From Vicinamibacterales bacterium (GTDB taxonomy: Bacteria > Acidobacteriota > Vicinamibacteria > Vicinamibacterales > UBA2999), in contig DATLLC010000042.1 in assembly GCA_035538015.1 (NCBI GenBank), positions 6,450-70,449 on the forward strand: a stretch of DNA of 64,000 bases, in the 5' to 3' direction. The notes beneath the pieces were generated by a model. That model ran no database searches, had not been told where the DNA came from, and saw only the letters and a program-made list of their open reading frames with translations. This document shows, in pieces, positions 41,296 through 48,297 of the stretch. Numbering within the stretch: position 1 is the first letter of the stretch; every line of letters begins with the position of its first letter. A program made the translations under genes and the position numbers.

Positions 41296-42546
41296 TCACT
41301 CCGACTCGAGAGCGAGCATGTCCTCGAGCGTCTGACGGCGGCGGATCACGCGCCAGTTGCCGCCATCGACCAGCACCTCGGGCGGCAGGGGCCGGCGCAG
41401 GTAGTTGGACCCCATGACCGCGCTGTAAGCGCCGCAATCGCGGATGACGACGAGGTCGCCCACCTCCATCGGAGGCAGGATGCGGTCGCGCGCGAAGGTA
41501 TCGGTGCTTTCGCAAATCGGTCCGACCACGTCGCAGGCGATCGGCGTGCCGGGCCGATCGTGCACCGCCTCGATGCGATGGAACGCACCGTAGAGCGCCG
41601 GGCGCATCAATTCGGTCATGCCGGCGTCGAGCACCACGAACCGCTTGGCGCCGGGCAGGTGCTTCACGTCCACGACCCGCGCCAGCAACATGCCGGCGGC
41701 GCCGACCAGCACGCGGCCGGGCTCGATCGCGAGCTTCAATCCGCTGCGCCCGGCAGTCGCCACGATGCGGCGGACGTATTCTTCCGCATCGGGGGCCGGT
41801 CCGCCGTCGTAGGCGATGCCGACTCCCCCGCCGAAGTCGAGGTGCTCGATGGCCAGGCCGTCGCCGCGGAGCGCCTGGGCGAGGGCGACGACCGCTTCGG
41901 CGGCGCGCTGGAGCGGATCGAGCGACGTGATCTGCGATCCGATGTGAACGTGGATGCCGACGGCGCGCAGCGACGGGCGCTCGGCGATGGCGCGGAACAG
42001 GGACGGGGCCATGTCGATCGGCACGCCGAACTTGTTGTCCTTGAGGCCGGTCGAGATGTGCGGATGGCTTAGTGCGTCGATGTCGGGATTCACCCGCAGG
42101 GCCACGCGTGCGACGGCGCCGCGGTCGGCGGCCAGGTGCGCGAGCCGATCGAGCTCGCCCGGCGATTCCACGTTGATGGCGAGCAGGTCGAGCGCGATCG
42201 CCCGTTCCAGCTCGTCTCCGCGCTTGCCCACCCCCGTGAAGACGATCTCGTCCGGCCGGAAGCCGCAGCGCAGGGCGACCTCGACTTCGCCCATCGAATT
42301 GGCGTCTGCGGCGCTGCCAAGCGCCCGCACGAGACGAACGATGGCCAGGGCGGAGTTGGCCTTGAGCGCGTAATGGATCGCGTGGGGTGCCGTCCCGAAA
42401 GCGGCGTCGAGCCGATGGTAGGCCGATCGCAGGACGTCGGCGTTGTAGACGTAGGCGGGGGTGCCGACCGCCGCGGCGATCGCCTCGATCACCGGGGGCT
42501 CGGCCACCGCTGCGCCGCGCGTCTGCGCGTCGCGTGAGACACTCAT
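41296..42546 (-). CDS. lysA: Diaminopimelate decarboxylase
   Basis: 416 aa from MSVSRDAQ. GTPAYVYNADVLRSAY, PLP lysine context (YALKANS), and the C-terminal CESTD motif (GPICESTD). Confidence 0.93.
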   Translation of the reverse strand: MSVSRDAQTRGAAVAEPPVIEAIAAAVGTPAYVYNADVLRSAYHRLDAAFGTAPHAIHYALKANSALAIVRLVRALGSAADANSMGEVEVALRCGFRPDEIVFTGVGKRGDELERAIALDLLAINVESPGELDRLAHLAADRGAVARVALRVNPDIDALSHPHISTGLKDNKFGVPIDMAPSLFRAIAERPSLRAVGIHVHIGSQITSLDPLQRAAEAVVALAQALRGDGLAIEHLDFGGGVGIAYDGGPAPDAEEYVRRIVATAGRSGLKLAIEPGRVLVGAAGMLLARVVDVKHLPGAKRFVVLDAGMTELMRPALYGAFHRIEAVHDRPGTPIACDVVGPICESTDTFARDRILPPMEVGDLVVIRDCGAYSAVMGSNYLRRPLPPEVLVDGGNWRVIRRRQTLEDMLALESE

Positions 42547-42756
42547 CAGCCCGAGATCATAGCGCGGGTATGCGGCCGGAGGCCCTGGGTTTTCGTGGTA
42601 TTCTGGCCCCGCCTGCCGGGGGATTTCAGCCCCACGGTTCACTCGAGTTGAGGATGCCATCAGCCCGCACTCTCCGCCGCTTGCGCCCGGTGCCGTCGAC
42701 GCCGCGGGCGGTTGGACTCGCCACTCGAGCGCACTGAGGGGTTGGATCCGCGCCTC

Positions 42757-43356
42757 ATGCCAGATCCGTCACCGGTTCCCACGGACGCCATCGATGCGTT
42801 GATCCAACGCTGCCTGGCCGGCGATCAGCAGGCGTGGGAGGAGATCGTCAGGCAGCACCGCCGGAAGGTGTTCAACATCGCCTACAAGTTCACCGGCAAG
42901 CACGACGAGGCCGAGGACCTGACGCAGGACATCTTCCTCAAGATCTTCAAGTCGCTGCACACCTTCGATCGGCGCGCCAATTTCCAGACGTGGCTGGTCA
43001 GCGTGTCGCGCAACCTGTGCATCGATCACTACCGCAGCGTGCGCAAGGAGCGCGAGACCATCGATCGTGATGTCGATGCCGGAGAGCTGATGCCCGCCGC
43101 GTCGACCCCGAGTGCCTATGCCGAGCTCGAGCAGCGCGGCCGGGTCGAGCTGCTGCGCCGCGCCCTGGCGGAGCTGCAGCCGACGCTGCGCAGTGCCGTC
43201 ATGCTGCGTGACATCCAGGAGCTCTCCTACCAGGAAATCGCCGACCGGCTACAGCTGCCGGAAGGCACCGTCAAGTCCCGCATCAACCGCGGCCGAACCG
43301 AACTGGCGCGCCAGATCCAGCGGCTGCGCGATGAACTCGAAGGGGTACGAGGATGA
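42757..43356 (+). CDS. ECF-type sigma-70 family RNA polymerase sigma factor
   Basis: Region 2 (EDLTQDIFLKIFKSLHTF...FQTWLVSVSRNLCIDHYR) and region 4 (LSYQEIADRLQLPEGTVKSRINRGR). I prefer the ATG at 42757; the ORF-track TTG at 42712 is possible. Confidence 0.88.
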   Translation: MPDPSPVPTDAIDALIQRCLAGDQQAWEEIVRQHRRKVFNIAYKFTGKHDEAEDLTQDIFLKIFKSLHTFDRRANFQTWLVSVSRNLCIDHYRSVRKERETIDRDVDAGELMPAASTPSAYAELEQRGRVELLRRALAELQPTLRSAVMLRDIQELSYQEIADRLQLPEGTVKSRINRGRTELARQIQRLRDELEGVRG

Positions 43357-43694
43357 ACCTCACGACCGACCGCTCCCACGACATCGCCATCGTCCGTATC
43401 GGCGAGACGCGCATCATGTATCCACTGCTGCAGGAGTTCTCCGCGGCGGTCACGGGCCTGCTGGCCAGCGGGGATCGTAAGGTGCTGATCGACCTGTCGA
43501 AAGTCCCTTATGTGGACTCGGCCACGATCGGCTGTCTCATGGATCTCTACCGGCAGACATCCGCCGCCGGCGGGGTGCTGCGCCTCGCCGGCGTGCAGAA
43601 GCGCGTCGAGACGATGCTGACCATGACCGGCGCGCACAATTTCCTGAAGATGTTTCCCGACGAGGCGACTGCCGTCCAGAGCTTCGGGGGTTAA
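43353..43694 (+). CDS. STAS-domain protein (anti-sigma-factor antagonist, SpoIIAA/RsbV-like)
   Basis: 113 aa. ...VLIDLSKVPYVDSATIGCLMDLYRQ...LRLAGVQKRVETMLTMTG is a typical STAS core with a DSA(T) phosphorylatable-site context. The ATG overlaps the sigma TGA (ATGA). Confidence 0.85.
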   Translation: MNLTTDRSHDIAIVRIGETRIMYPLLQEFSAAVTGLLASGDRKVLIDLSKVPYVDSATIGCLMDLYRQTSAAGGVLRLAGVQKRVETMLTMTGAHNFLKMFPDEATAVQSFGG

Positions 43695-43696
43695 CC

Positions 43697-43966
43697 ATGC
43701 GCAGTATCAAGACCACCACCGGGAAGGAGATCGGGCTCGACGGCGACCTGCTCGCCATCCTCGAGGCGCTCTTCCACGAAGTCACGGCCAAGGTGCTCGA
43801 AGGCGGCACCTACGAGGACATGAACCGCGAGATCAACTACCTCGTCTCGCAGATGGGCGATGATGACCTGCGGGCGTACCTCGCGGAAAGCCTGTTCCTC
43901 AACCAGGTGAAGTACGAAAACGATCGCCTCGAGCAGTACATGAAGAAGAAGTTGCACCAGAAATAG
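43697..43966 (+). CDS. Hypothetical small acidic helical protein (89 aa), no family recognised
   Basis: It starts 2 nt after the STAS stop and ends 33 nt before the radical-SAM ATG. GC-rich third positions. No Cys and no TM helix. Predicted all-helical from composition. Confidence 0.65.
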   Translation: MRSIKTTTGKEIGLDGDLLAILEALFHEVTAKVLEGGTYEDMNREINYLVSQMGDDDLRAYLAESLFLNQVKYENDRLEQYMKKKLHQK

Positions 43967-43999
43967 GTCGACGGCCGGTTGCCGACTGCCCGGTACACG

Positions 44000-45364
44000 A
44001 TGTCCGAGAACTATCTCGCCACCCGCTACACCTGTTCCTGGCCTCACTCCATCGCGGTCATGCTCTGCGACGGCCGCATCGTCTGTGGTTGCGCGGACCC
44101 GTACGCGCAGCGGGTGCTCGGCGACGTGCGGACCACGTCGATCGCCGACGTCTGGCAGGGACCGACCGCGCGGCAGCTCCGCGTCGACCTGAATGCCGGC
44201 GGATCGTCCTTCTGCGGCGATTGTCCACTGAAGCTGCCGCTCGGGCCCGGGGACGCGATTCCCCAGCGCGACGTGAACGTCGGTCCGCTGCCCAGCCGGC
44301 TTTACATCGAGTGCACCGCCGCCTGCAACATCTCGTGCTTCCAAGCGTGCTGCGCGCCGGAGACCGGCATCACGAGGACGCGCCAGGCGGGGATGCTCGA
44401 CTGGGATCTGTTCACGCGGGCCGTGGACGAGGCCGGTGGCTCGCTCGTCCGCATCGACTTCTTCAATTACGGCGAGGCGTTCCTGCACAAGCGGGCGGTC
44501 GAGATGTGCGAGTACATCAAGTCGAGGTTCCCGCACATCTACCTGTACACCAGCACGAACGGACTGGCGCTCACCGAGGAGAAGGCGCGGCGGCTCGTCC
44601 ATTCCGGCATCGACGAGGTCACCTTCTCGATCGACGGCGCGTCACAGGACGCCTACGTGAAGTACCGCCAGCGAGGGAACTTCGACAAGGCGCTGGCGAA
44701 CCTGCGGGCCATGGCCGACGAGAAGCGCAAGAGCGGGCGCGACGTGCCGCACCTGAACTGGCGCTACATCCTGTTCAACTGGAACGATGCGGACGAGGAG
44801 ATGAACAAGGCGCGCGAGATCGCTGCCGAGGTCGGCGTCGATCGGCTCTGCTGGGAGATTACCGATCACCCGGAAGACTCTTACTCACGCCGCTTCGCCC
44901 CGGGCACGCCGGACTACGAGCGGATCCGTCACGAAATCTGGGACATGAGCGGGCTCGGCAACGCGATTCCCGGAACCACCCCACGGGCGCAGATCGACGT
45001 CCGCGCGCTGATTCCAGGCTTCCCGCTTCGCGCCAGAGCGACGCAGCCGGTGAGGGTCAAGACCCGCGTGAAGAACCTCTCGGGCCGCCCGTTCCGGGCC
45101 CAGGCGAGCTACGGCCGACGCCTGGTCCGCCTCGGGGCGCAGTTGATGGGCGAGGACGGCACGATAATCGACCGGGATTACGCCCGGGCCTGGCTGCCTG
45201 GGGATATTGCTCCTGGCGGCGTGGCGGAGGTCGTGATGGAAGTGCTCGCCCCCGAGAAACCGGGGCGCTACGCGCTGAAGTTCGACCTTGTCAGCGAAGG
45301 CATCGACTGGTTCGAGAAATGCGGTTCTCAGACCACCACCAAGACACTCGTGGTCCGCGCGTAG
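44000..45364 (+). CDS. Radical SAM-fold enzyme with N-terminal Cys-rich (SPASM/twitch-like) domain and C-terminal Ig-like domain
   Basis: Core motifs: CTAACNISCFQACC cluster, NYGEAFL (GGE-like), TSTNGLAL and FSIDGASQDAYVKYRQRGNFDKA. N-terminus: CDGRIVCGC...LGDV..SIADVW...CGDCPLK. The C-terminus (RYALKFDLVSEGIDWFE) resembles NBR1/CARDB-like Ig domains. A TTG at 43979 is an alternative start. Confidence 0.8.
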   Translation: MSENYLATRYTCSWPHSIAVMLCDGRIVCGCADPYAQRVLGDVRTTSIADVWQGPTARQLRVDLNAGGSSFCGDCPLKLPLGPGDAIPQRDVNVGPLPSRLYIECTAACNISCFQACCAPETGITRTRQAGMLDWDLFTRAVDEAGGSLVRIDFFNYGEAFLHKRAVEMCEYIKSRFPHIYLYTSTNGLALTEEKARRLVHSGIDEVTFSIDGASQDAYVKYRQRGNFDKALANLRAMADEKRKSGRDVPHLNWRYILFNWNDADEEMNKAREIAAEVGVDRLCWEITDHPEDSYSRRFAPGTPDYERIRHEIWDMSGLGNAIPGTTPRAQIDVRALIPGFPLRARATQPVRVKTRVKNLSGRPFRAQASYGRRLVRLGAQLMGEDGTIIDRDYARAWLPGDIAPGGVAEVVMEVLAPEKPGRYALKFDLVSEGIDWFEKCGSQTTTKTLVVRA

Positions 45365-45380: not shown

Positions 45381-45450
45381 ATTGATGATTGATGATTGGC
45401 GATTGATGATTGATTGGCGATTGGGCGATTGCGCCATTGCATTCAATTGC
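45381..45450. repeat. Degenerate tandem heptamer array, unit NNGATTG (about 9 units), one orientation only
   Basis: Read directly: attg atgattg atgattg gcgattg atgattg attg gcgattg ggcgattg cgccattg... It begins 17 nt after the radical-SAM stop codon. Confidence 0.8.
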
Positions 45451-45822: not shown

Positions 45823-48297
45823 ATGAGTGCCCTGAGCGCCGCGCTCCGCCAGCTGCGTCAACACCCCGGCTTCGCCCTGATCACCGTGCTCGTGCTGGGC
45901 CTTGGCACGGGATCGGCCACCGCCGTCTTCACCGTGGTCGATGCCGTCGTCCTGCGACCCCTCCCCTACAAGGAGCCAGATCGGCTGGTGACGATCTGGG
46001 ACACCAACGCAGCGCAGGCGCTCGGCCACGATCGGATCTCGCCGGTCAACTTCATGGATCAGCGGGCGCTTCCGGTGTTCGAGGATGCCGCCGCCTGGTG
46101 GCGCCCGGGTGTGAACCTGACCGATCCAGGCCGGGACCCGATGCGCGTGACGACGATCGAGGCGAGCGGGAACCTCTTCGACGTGCTCGGCATTCGCCCG
46201 CAGCTCGGCGACGGCTTCCCGGCGGGAGGGCCGCTGTTCGCCCGCGGCGAGCCGCTGGCCGTCATCAGCGACCGTCTCTGGCGGGAGCGGTTCGGCGGCG
46301 ACCGGGGCATCCTGGGCCGGCCGATTCTGCTGAACGGCTCTGCCTACCTGGTCGCGGGCGTCATGCCGGCGGGCTTTCATTATCCAGACGACGTGGATGT
46401 GTGGCAGCGACTGCAGTGGGACATGACGCAGCACAGCCGGCAGGCCCACTTCATGGAAGCGGTCGCGAGGCTCAAGGCTGGCGTGACCACCGAGCAGGCC
46501 CAGAGCGCCGTGGATGCGCTGTGGATACGGCTCGAACAGGATTTTGGCCAGACCCGCAACAGCCCCGGCAAGGGCTGGGGCTCGCGGCTGGTGCCCCTCC
46601 TGGACGAACAGCTCGGCTACTATCGCCCGGCCTTGATGGTGCTGTTCGGCGCGGTGGGCCTGCTCCTCACCATCGCCGTCCTCAACGTCGCCTCTCTGCT
46701 CCTCACCCGCTCGCTCGCGCGCGAGCGCGAAATCGCCGTGCGTGTGGCCCTTGGGGCCTCGCCTCGACAGTTGATCCGGCAGTTGATGGCCGAGAGCCTC
46801 GTCCTCTCGGTCGCGGGCGCCATCGTCGGGACGGCCGCGGCCGTCGCCGCCCTGCCCCTCATCCTCGCCGTCATGCCGGTCGAGATCCCACGACTCCAGG
46901 AGGCGAGCGTGAATGCGCGTGCGCTGGCGCTCGGCCTGCTGGTGGTCGGTGTGACGACCGTCGTCTTCGGGCTGGTCCCGGCGCTGCTGCTGCTCAAGCG
47001 GCAGGTCGCCGTTGATCTCAAGTCTGGTGAGCGCGGCAGCTCACGCGGTGCGCGCCGGTTGTACTCCGTGCTGGTGACGGCCGAGGTCGCGCTCGCGTGC
47101 GCGCTCCTGGTGAGCTCGGCTCTGCTGGTGCGCACCGTTCAGCAGATGGTGCGAACACCGGTCGGCGTGAACGCGGACGATGTGCTGATGACGACCGTGC
47201 AGCTCATGCTCCCCGCGGCGCCACGCGGCACGTCAATCCGCGACCAGTGGCTGCCGGTCGCCGAGACCCACGCGCAGATCGTGGAGGCCATTCGCCGTCA
47301 GCCCGGGGTCATCGCTGCGGGCGCGAGCAATTTCCTACCGCTCGAGATCGGCTGGCGGCAGCCGTTCGTGCTCGACGGACAGCCCTGGCCTACTCCCATC
47401 GATGATGCGCCGCAGGTGCAGATGCAGAGCGTCAGCGACGGCTACCTGGAGACAATGGGCGCCGCACTGGTAGAAGGGCGCCTGTTCACGCCCTTCGACA
47501 ACGCCGGCACCGCCGGGGTGATCGTCGTCAACGAGACCTTCGCCAGACAGCACCTGCCAGAGGGGCGTGCCGTGGGGACCGTCGTGCGTCTGCACACGAG
47601 CAGCATCGGGCCGCTCGGCGTCAACCTGAAGGCGTCGGCCACTCACGAGCCGGCCGGGCAGGCCTTCGAGGTGATTGGCGTGGTGCGGGATGTTCGCAAC
47701 GTCCCGCTCGGCCAACGCACCGAGCCGGCGTTCTTCACGACCACGCGCCAGTACCCGTTTTCAGAGGTGTTCCTGGCGGTCCGGGCCACGGACTCGGCGA
47801 CGGCGCTCTCGGCGATTCGGGACGGCCTCCGGTCGGTGGCCCCACAGGTACCGATGGCGGCAGCTCGGACTTGGGGAGACCGCTTTGCGTCGCGGACTGC
47901 CGAACCTCGGTTGCTGATGGTGCTGCTGTTGTTCTTCGGCGCGGTTGCGGCGGCGCTCGCCGCCCTTGGCGTCTACGGGTTGTTCTCGTGGGCCGTGGCC
48001 CAACGAACGCGGGAACTGGCCATCCGCCTTACGCTGGGCGCCCGGCCCCTGCGCGTCGGCGGGGCGGTGCTGGCGCAAAGCGTGCTGCTCATCGGGGCGG
48101 GCCTGGCCGTCGGGTTGGTCGTCGTACGCCTGTCGGAGGCCGCCCTCGCACGGGTGTTGTACGAGGTGTCTCCGTCCGACGCCGGGTCGATCGTGATGGC
48201 CGCGGGCGTGCTGATTGCTGCCGCGATCGGCGCATGCCTGCCGCCGGCCGTGAAGGCCATGCACGTCAACCCGGTGGACGGGTTACGGGCTGACTAG
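45823..48297 (+). CDS. ADOP family duplicated FtsX/MacB-type permease (two MacB_PCD + FtsX modules, no ATPase partner nearby)
   Basis: 824 aa. The N-terminus LRQLRQHPGFALITVLVLGLGTGSATAVFTVVDAVVLRPLPYKEPDRLV is the hallmark of the acidobacterial duplicated orphan permease family. There are two four-helix FtsX modules. Confidence 0.92.
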   Translation: MSALSAALRQLRQHPGFALITVLVLGLGTGSATAVFTVVDAVVLRPLPYKEPDRLVTIWDTNAAQALGHDRISPVNFMDQRALPVFEDAAAWWRPGVNLTDPGRDPMRVTTIEASGNLFDVLGIRPQLGDGFPAGGPLFARGEPLAVISDRLWRERFGGDRGILGRPILLNGSAYLVAGVMPAGFHYPDDVDVWQRLQWDMTQHSRQAHFMEAVARLKAGVTTEQAQSAVDALWIRLEQDFGQTRNSPGKGWGSRLVPLLDEQLGYYRPALMVLFGAVGLLLTIAVLNVASLLLTRSLAREREIAVRVALGASPRQLIRQLMAESLVLSVAGAIVGTAAAVAALPLILAVMPVEIPRLQEASVNARALALGLLVVGVTTVVFGLVPALLLLKRQVAVDLKSGERGSSRGARRLYSVLVTAEVALACALLVSSALLVRTVQQMVRTPVGVNADDVLMTTVQLMLPAAPRGTSIRDQWLPVAETHAQIVEAIRRQPGVIAAGASNFLPLEIGWRQPFVLDGQPWPTPIDDAPQVQMQSVSDGYLETMGAALVEGRLFTPFDNAGTAGVIVVNETFARQHLPEGRAVGTVVRLHTSSIGPLGVNLKASATHEPAGQAFEVIGVVRDVRNVPLGQRTEPAFFTTTRQYPFSEVFLAVRATDSATALSAIRDGLRSVAPQVPMAAARTWGDRFASRTAEPRLLMVLLLFFGAVAAALAALGVYGLFSWAVAQRTRELAIRLTLGARPLRVGGAVLAQSVLLIGAGLAVGLVVVRLSEAALARVLYEVSPSDAGSIVMAAGVLIAAAIGACLPPAVKAMHVNPVDGLRAD

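Follow-up and report, generated by a model that had tools for sequence, protein, structure and literature searches.

Enzymes of the radical S-adenosylmethionine (SAM) superfamily are recognised and annotated mainly through the cysteine motif CX3CX2C. Departures from this motif include ThiC (CX2CX4C), HmdB (CX5CX2C), QueE (CX14CX2C) and the variants of Elp3. The founding twitch-domain radical-SAM enzyme is BtrN, i.e., the 2-deoxy-scyllo-inosamine dehydrogenase of the butirosin pathway (PDB 4m7t/4m7s), and SPASM/twitch enzymes of the maturase type, including those acting on peptides that are made by the ribosome and modified afterwards (RiPPs), mostly modify peptides or proteins. In a 2026 review, SPASM domains are defined as C-terminal extensions that bind two auxiliary clusters (PMC13459092). 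The present analysis concerns a gene located at positions 44000..45364 (+ strand) of a stretch of 64,000 nucleotides, hereafter the window, from a Vicinamibacterales bacterium (assembly GCA_035538015.1, contig DATLLC010000042.1, positions 6,450 to 70,449). Its product, of 454 amino acids (aa), is predicted to be a radical-SAM enzyme in which a twitch domain precedes the core and the conserved Cys triad reads CX3CX4C. What is new is the combination of an N-terminal twitch domain, a mobile non-canonical third Cys and a probable NBR1-type immunoglobulin (Ig)-like domain, no single one of these features being without precedent.

The gene is complete, as judged from the list of open reading frames, the N-termini of homologues and the homologue search. 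An alternative in-frame start exists (TTG at 43979, vs. ATG at 44000); since homologues begin at the Met of 44000, the TTG is not supported and the ATG is preferred. The G+C content at third codon positions (GC3) is 0.88, equal to that of the adjacent genes, thus the gene is a native coding gene. A sequencing error or a pseudogene was considered and ruled out by conservation together with this native GC3. The order along the protein is: N-terminal twitch domain, linker, radical-SAM core, NBR1-type Ig-like domain. All the strings picked out by the first-pass annotation of the window (NYGEAFL, TSTNGLAL, FSIDG, CDGRIVCGC, LGDV..SIADVW and CGDCPLK) were found in the protein.

Domain order and family relationships

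The core (aa 100-312; 44297..44935, +) is a partial (beta/alpha)6 barrel according to Pfam, AlphaFold2 (AF2) and Foldseek. Radical_SAM (PF04055) matches aa 104-244 with an E-value of 4.7e-12 and 46.8 bits (cutoff 29.5), and the core announced in the first-pass annotation is thus recognisable as such. Its motifs are NYGEAF (GGE-type; 44465-44482, +), TSTNG (44549-44563, +), FSIDG (44624-44638, +), RYILFxWND on beta-5 (+) and WEITDHPE (44852-44875, +). An orthologue set of 44 sequences, with about 35-92% identity to the query, was aligned; in this alignment the SAM-binding motifs are invariant, i.e., YGE (157-159), S/T-TNG (185-188) and S-x-DG (210-213).

AF2 was run on the same alignment and gave a model with a predicted local distance difference test (pLDDT) score of 91.1 and a predicted template modelling (pTM) score of 0.87. 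The model consists of a small beta/alpha N-domain, the linker 77-99, six beta-alpha units (100-312) and an all-beta part (330-453). Compared with the PDB by Foldseek, the whole protein has no close solved relative. The core matches only generic radical-SAM cores (query-normalised TM-score, TMq, ~0.33), i.e., viperin, CteB, MoaA, SkfB, SuiB, NifB, anSME, DesII, AprD4 and GDGT-MAS. The PDB relatives found by sequence profile include the sugar/cyclitol enzymes BtrN and BlsE.

The twitch-type (half-SPASM) auxiliary Fe-S domain occupies aa 12-76 (44033..44227, +), as delimited by Pfam SPASM and by profile alignment with BtrN. SPASM (PF13186) matches this segment over profile positions 1-67 with an E-value of 1e-7 and 32.6 bits (cutoff 21.5), and both SPASM and Radical_SAM were matched in 44/44 orthologues scanned. 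The domain therefore precedes the core instead of following it. Its Cys are C12, C23, C29, C31 and C72-x2-C75, with none after C75 in the domain; C12, C29, C31, C72 and C75 are invariant in the alignment and C23 is found in most sequences. The seven- or eight-Cys pattern of two-cluster SPASM domains (CX9-15GX4C ... CX2CX5CX3C ... C) is not present, and since no CX2CX5CX3C lies beyond C75 the domain is of the one-cluster twitch type. The N-terminal SPASM/twitch domain proposed in the first-pass annotation thus stands for its location and its Pfam match, although it is a half-SPASM twitch and not a full SPASM domain. Apart from C284 and C441 no Cys follows the core, and a second auxiliary domain at the C-terminus is therefore absent. 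The twitch domain is joined to core strand beta-1 by a Pro/Gly-rich linker (aa 77-99; 44228..44296, +), placed from the AF2 model and the alignment, which has no regular secondary structure in the model and corresponds to variable alignment columns.

The permutation is shown directly by the comparison with BtrN, which is the top match of the family profile in a search of all PDB sequences (E-value 9e-18). BtrN core residues 22-135 align to family aa 99-210, and the BtrN C-terminal twitch residues 182-263 align to family aa 5-83 (domain E-value 1.7e-7), i.e., the two stretches align in swapped order. A single-sequence search against the PDB gives the same two-part alignment. C12, C29/C31 and C72-x2-C75 align with the positions of the four BtrN auxiliary-cluster ligands. 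Homology of the N-domain to the BtrN twitch domain, with a predicted capacity for one auxiliary cluster, is strongly supported by these alignments. BtrN and the present protein thus have a homologous radical-SAM core and a homologous one-cluster twitch domain in common. They differ in that (i) BtrN has its twitch domain at the C-terminus, the present protein at the N-terminus; (ii) the BtrN motif is the canonical CX3CX2C (CNRTCWYC), whereas the loop has two more residues here; (iii) BtrN has no Ig-like domain and its barrel is shorter; (iv) identity is low and a butirosin-type gene cluster is absent here.

With the SPASM enzymes (anSME, CteB, SuiB, PqqE, MftC; PF13186/TIGR04085) the protein shares the above-threshold SPASM match and the xTNG and SxDG core motifs. 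In these enzymes the domain is C-terminal and carries two auxiliary clusters, whereas here it is N-terminal and the CX2CX5CX3C half is missing, which leaves room for at most one auxiliary cluster. The literature searched yielded no relevant paper on N-terminal SPASM/twitch radical-SAM enzymes or on their circular permutation.

The last domain is a probable NBR1/N_BRCA1_IG-type Ig-like beta-sandwich (aa 330-453; 44987..45358, +) with an invariant block KFDxVSEGIDWF. In the query, N_BRCA1_IG (PF16158) matches aa 374-433 below its cutoff (E-value 0.0095, 16.9 bits vs. 28), and it is matched in 16/44 orthologues at E<=0.01 (best 8e-7). These orthologue matches, the all-beta fold of the AF2 model and its Foldseek match to human NBR1 (4ole, E-value 2.6e-6) back the Ig-like domain of NBR1 type that had been read from the sequence at first. 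The C-terminal ~120 aa are predicted to form the same Ig-like sandwich as the FW domain of NBR1 (PF16158, 4ole). The related bacterial PF16158 domains are repeats in large, probably extracellular proteins, whereas a single copy is carried here by a predicted cytoplasmic Fe-S enzyme; the large PF16158-repeat proteins match aa 369-449 only.

A word-indexed search returned 3435 homologues at E<=1e-5. The best 120 of them are 75-99% identical, full-length and, where named, from Vicinamibacterales or Acidobacteriota. When representatives of clusters at 50% identity were searched exhaustively with HMMER, 323 clusters were obtained at E<=1e-30; at least 480 GTDB species genomes encode a relative, and the names of the matches place the family across Acidobacteriota classes. 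No NCBIfam model accepts the query, nor any of ten distant relatives. The models TIGR04317 (96.4 bits vs. a cutoff of 380) and TIGR04311 (80.2 bits vs. 400) match only the core region (aa 97-283). Judged from sequence comparison, this is a widespread and strongly conserved radical-SAM family of Acidobacteriota, distinct from the curated NCBIfam families. Placement by profile models in a characterised subgroup, which had been foreseen as a possible outcome, did not occur.

The model NF033640 ('N_Twi_rSAM') deserves separate mention. It gives 26.5 bits for the query (cutoff 170) and 27-54 bits for the ten relatives, whose N-terminal ~70 residues correspond to positions 2-75 of the 398-position profile. 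NF033640 thus opens with a homologous N-terminal twitch domain and shares this layout with the present family, so that the permuted layout is not unprecedented; the query, far below the cutoff, is not a member. The relative nearest to the model (P0240) has a canonical motif, CNLQCPDC. We know of no characterised function for members of NF033640. The first-pass statement that no described family has the combination seen here therefore holds in that the protein lies outside every curated model, and has to be tempered for the permuted order, for which NF033640 is a precedent.

It must also be noticed that the distant paralogues P0204, P0213, P0216, P0231 and P0246 have an N-terminal twitch domain, a CX3CX4C motif and 1-4 C-terminal DUF4214 repeats. 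DUF4214 proteins are also encoded by genes adjoining a radical-SAM paralogue (locus L174).

Predicted cluster-binding cysteines

The predicted cluster-binding segment (44312..44353, +), delimited by sequence and conservation, reads C105-TAA-C109-NIS-C113-FQA-C117-C118 (i.e., C105-x3-C109-x3-C113-x3-C117-C118), letter for letter as in the first-pass annotation. As also stated there, it contains no canonical CX3CX2C; nor does the whole protein, none of its 14 Cys being so arranged. All five Cys (C105, C109, C113, C117, C118) are invariant among the 12 closest sequences (75-91% identity), which excludes a local idiosyncrasy or a sequencing error. In the 44-orthologue alignment, down to 35% identity, C109 (44324-44326, +), C113 (44336-44338, +) and C118 (44351-44353, +) are invariant, position 105 is mostly occupied by Pro, and at position 117 all but a few lineages have V, A, S, T, H or P.

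A motif survey of 429 family sequences gave 148 distinct motif strings, with C118 in 135 and C117 in 68 of them; an additional Cys just before C109 is present in 70/148. The '...CAPET' clade, to which the query belongs, contains the variants CNQAVC, CNQAIC and CAQAVC, all without C117 and all with C118. Since C118 is kept while C117 and C105 vary, the family motif is C109-X3-C113-X4-C118, i.e., CX3CX4C. By the same comparisons, C105 and C117 are lineage-specific extras, which the first reading, CX3CX3C(X3CC), had merged with the true triad. A non-canonical spacing is thus indeed conserved among homologues, but the conserved form is X4 and not X3, and the third Cys is C118 and not C117.

The spacing between the second and the third Cys was surveyed in 87 cluster representatives at 50% identity with a recognisable CNxxC, most of which have the N-terminal Cys-rich domain. 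X4 only is found in 34, both X3 and X4 ('CC') in ~31, X3 only in 4, X5 in 2 and the canonical X2 in 14. This branch of the superfamily is thus unusually plastic in the position of the third Cys (X2, X3, X4, X5). ThiC, HmdB, QueE and the Elp3 variants also have an altered three-Cys spacing, and theirs is compatible with SAM cleavage. To our knowledge none of them has CX3CX4C, and they differ from the present case in that here subfamilies sharing one architecture differ in the third-Cys spacing, which ranges from X2 to X5. No paper tying CX3CX4C or CxxxCxxxxC to radical SAM was found in the literature searched.

The extra Cys show a pattern of their own. The upstream one lies at position 105 in Vicinamibacterales (C105) and at position 106 in another clade (C106). 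In the motif strings, an upstream Cys and C117 occur together in 58, the upstream Cys only in 12, C117 only in 10 and neither in 68. The pair is found together in at least two separate lineages, yet either member can be lost alone. These extra Cys (C105/C106 and C117) could form a disulfide or an additional ligand pair.

Gene neighbourhoods

Three genes on the + strand precede the radical-SAM gene in the window. The first encodes a sigma factor of the extracytoplasmic-function (ECF) type (42712..43356; Pfam Sigma70_r2 and r4_2, synteny). The second, which overlaps the first by 4 nucleotides (nt), encodes a STAS-domain protein of the anti-sigma-antagonist type (43353..43694; Pfam STAS E-value 3e-16, synteny). 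The third encodes a conserved 89-aa protein (43697..43966; homologues, AF2) and ends 33 nt before the start of the radical-SAM gene. This four-gene order is kept in ~77/80 Vicinamibacterales genomes and in most metagenomic loci of this clade (exceptions: L076, L084, L152, L156), and the distance between the 89-aa and the radical-SAM genes varies from 33 to ~240 nt. The ECF sigma gene is taken as context only, not being shown to be functionally linked to the radical-SAM gene.

The 89-aa protein has no match in Pfam or NCBIfam. It has 4963 homologues, the top ones all belonging to the same clade with the uninformative label 'phage gp29-like' (JGI). It contains no Cys and is conserved over its full length with a variable C-terminal tail. 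Its AF2 model (pLDDT 83) is a beta-hairpin followed by three helices, with no fold match in the PDB (best E-value 0.6). Rather than a precursor of a RiPP, it appears to be a folded protein partnering the sigma/STAS module. No anti-sigma factor or RsbW-type kinase is recognisable in the sigma/STAS/89-aa module (42712-43966), and the anti-sigma partner that is missing might be the 89-aa protein.

The flanking genes look ordinary, i.e., a diaminopimelate-decarboxylase-like (lysA-like) gene divergent from the sigma gene (41296-42660, -) and, downstream after a spacer of 458 nt, a gene for a MacB/FtsX-type duplicated permease of 824 aa (45823-48297, +). Imperfect tandem heptamers are found in this spacer, 3' of the radical-SAM gene (45381-45439): ATTGATG ~5x, then GATTGGC/GATTGGGC. 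They form an AT-rich island in a genome of 67% GC, with no Rfam family or terminator at that place. Around the radical-SAM gene, nothing credible was found as a riboswitch, other RNA, promoter or terminator.

Outside Vicinamibacterales, orthologues of 41-50% identity have other neighbours: the sigma/STAS/89-aa order is not kept and no homologue of the 89-aa protein lies beside them. In one setting the gene is found in a cluster of glycosyltransferases of family 4 (GT4) and a Bac_transf gene, in the order GT4-GT4-GT4-[radical-SAM]-GT4-Bac_transf, with a CDP-alcohol phosphatidyltransferase nearby; in another it lies near GT4, glycosyltransferase family 2 (GT2), MraY-type and DegT genes. At the locus L003 an inositol-1-phosphate synthase gene is adjacent and divergent, and KpsF-like, glycosyltransferase, methyltransferase and UDP-glucose dehydrogenase genes are near. 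Some orthologues overlap a polysaccharide deacetylase, others an SGNH hydrolase, and some come after an LVIVD-repeat protein. Envelope glycan and phospholipid genes thus recur near orthologues, although this is not decisive. The link to envelope polysaccharide suggested in the first-pass annotation fits the neighbourhoods of some distant orthologues but is not established.

Small CDP-alcohol phosphatidyltransferases (185-199 aa) are encoded divergently from, or within 3 kb of, an orthologue in four lineages. They are adjacent and divergent in L117 (2520-3077, -) and L111 (3103-3657, -), and nearby in L088 (5456-6055, -) and L089 (10943-11524, -); a further one is nearby in L094.

In one Acidobacteriota clade, genes for RecR, a Roadblock/LC7 (MglB-like) protein and a small Ras-like (MglA-like) GTPase directly precede the radical-SAM orthologue, the stop and start codons of the four genes abutting or overlapping (L104, 4197-5991; also L096, L100, L102, L106-L110, L112, L115 and L171). 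More distant paralogues adjoin PKD and FHA proteins. When ten candidate neighbour proteins were compared by tblastn with all loci, no neighbour common to all lineages was found, i.e., synteny is lineage-restricted.

Proposed chemistry and its alternatives

The explanation that best accounts for the whole, with a probability of about 0.55, is that of an active, cytoplasmic, twitch-type radical-SAM enzyme of permuted order acting on an envelope sugar or polyol, as sequence and model suggest. That the SAM cluster would sit in the loop after beta-1, two residues longer than the canonical loop, with C109, C113 and C118 as the only Cys kept family-wide, is a strongly supported part of this explanation. 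C109, C113 and C118 would bind the SAM-cleaving [4Fe-4S] cluster, and C12, C29 or C31, C72 and C75 one auxiliary [4Fe-4S] cluster. Despite its N-terminal attachment, the N-domain would pack at the opening of the barrel, in the manner of C-terminal twitch domains. SAM would be reductively cleaved and the 5'-deoxyadenosyl radical would take a hydrogen atom from the substrate. The auxiliary cluster may then accept or relay the second electron, leading to chemistry of the dehydrogenase or epimerase type (cf. BtrN, anSME, NeoN). Whichever invariant Cys is left over (C29 or C31) and, in WEITDHPE, the invariant pair D289-H290 are candidates for a hydrogen donor and a base, and the Ig-like domain may help to hold the substrate or a partner. 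The most speculative step is the substrate, which may be non-peptidic, i.e., a sugar or polyol moiety belonging to a glycoconjugate of the envelope or to a lipid head group. This guess is made because BtrN and BlsE act on sugars, because glycan and phospholipid genes are found as neighbours, and because there is no RiPP recognition element (RRE): neither an RRE nor a PqqD domain was found in the protein by the Pfam scan.

Several observations weigh against this explanation. The AF2 model is least confident in the cluster loop (aa 110-130; pLDDT 65-71), and C117, which is present here, could ligate the cluster in place of C118. The best sub-threshold likeness of the core among NCBIfam models is to the putative metalloenzyme maturases TIGR04317 and TIGR04311, and maturases of this type would act on proteins or cofactors. 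The neighbourhoods are heterogeneous (sigma/STAS, RecR-Roadblock-GTPase, LVIVD, PKD/FHA, DUF4214), and the small CDP-alcohol transferases may be no more than housekeeping pgsA.

The alternatives bear either on the third ligand or on the function. If the first-pass reading were correct for this protein, C117 would be the third SAM-cluster ligand and C118 would have another role. In four distant cluster representatives the X3 Cys stands alone (e.g., CNLDCHYMCF and CNLNCPTPCG), which indicates that an X3 loop is possible in this superfamily branch, and C117 does not vary among the 12 closest homologues. Nevertheless C118 is invariant in 44/44 orthologues while position 117 is variable outside a few lineages, and within the '...CAPET' clade itself there are CNQAVC and CNQAIC members without C117 and none without C118, which makes this assignment unlikely. 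Even less room is left for an inactive 'pseudo-SAM' protein or an assembly artefact, in which the odd motif would reflect a lost function or a sequencing error. The absence of the canonical motif and a weak match to the pseudo-SAM family TIGR04347 point that way; however, this match reaches 41.7 bits for a cutoff of 525, hundreds of independent assemblies carry the identical motif, eight Cys and the SAM-binding motifs do not vary across the range of 35-92% identity, and GC3 is native. An inactive pseudo-enzyme is thus effectively excluded by conservation, as far as sequences can tell.

Concerning function, a peptide or protein maturase, acting on the upstream 89-aa protein or on another protein or metalloenzyme, seems rather improbable to us. 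The sigma-STAS-89-aa-radical-SAM order of Vicinamibacterales speaks for it, as do the core scores of TIGR04317 (96 bits) and TIGR04311 (80 bits), the best in NCBIfam, and the presence of CteB and SkfB among the structural and sequence matches. Yet every NCBIfam score is far under its cutoff, the orthologues of 41-50% identity in other Acidobacteriota have no 89-aa homologue nearby, and even in Vicinamibacterales the loci L076, L084, L152 and L156 lack the 89-aa gene or are interrupted. Moreover, the 89-aa protein is Cys-free, has no obvious core peptide and is conserved like a folded protein with a variable tail, the intergenic distance is not fixed, and neither an RRE/PqqD domain nor a co-conserved precursor peptide, as expected for a RiPP maturase, was found. 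An enzyme modifying lipids typical of Acidobacteriota membranes, at an acyl or alkyl chain or at the head group of a phospholipid, is about as doubtful as a maturase. It would agree with the spread over Acidobacteriota classes, with the CDP-alcohol phosphatidyltransferases adjacent and divergent in L117 and L111 or near in L088, L089 and L094, with the inositol-1-phosphate synthase adjoining the orthologue in L003, and with GDGT-MAS (7tom) among the Foldseek matches. However, the likeness to GDGT-MAS is that of a generic core only (rank 30, root-mean-square deviation ~13 A), no transmembrane or markedly hydrophobic segment is present in the sequence or in the AF2 model, the transferases may be housekeeping pgsA as said above, and such a neighbour is found neither in the window nor in the loci of Vicinamibacterales.

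The preferred explanation, an active permuted twitch enzyme with an envelope sugar or polyol as substrate, can be extended into a bolder one, which we regard as a long shot. The protein would then be the first of a family spanning the phylum Acidobacteriota, with the SAM cluster bound in a CX3CX4C loop and a spacing that has drifted from X2 to X5 while the N-terminal-twitch architecture stayed one. The extra Cys pair (C105/C106 and C117) would be a redox or metal site gating the activity. The reaction would be a radical modification not yet described, e.g., an oxidation or epimerisation, of a head group (inositol or sugar) in a lipid or glycan of the envelope, under control of the ECF sigma factor in Vicinamibacterales.

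In so far as its sequences indicate, the family breaks both rules by which such enzymes are known, i.e., the CX3CX2C motif and the C-terminal position of the SPASM/twitch domain, while retaining the other hallmarks of an active enzyme. Its members come from at least 480 species genomes and, in metagenomes, number in the thousands. It thus offers a natural test case for (i) the geometric freedom of the SAM-cluster loop; (ii) the question whether an auxiliary-cluster domain can work from the opposite end of the barrel. For the Vicinamibacterales, which are abundant and poorly cultured soil bacteria, it represents a near-universal enzyme, the product of which is probably a component of the cell envelope that has not been described before.

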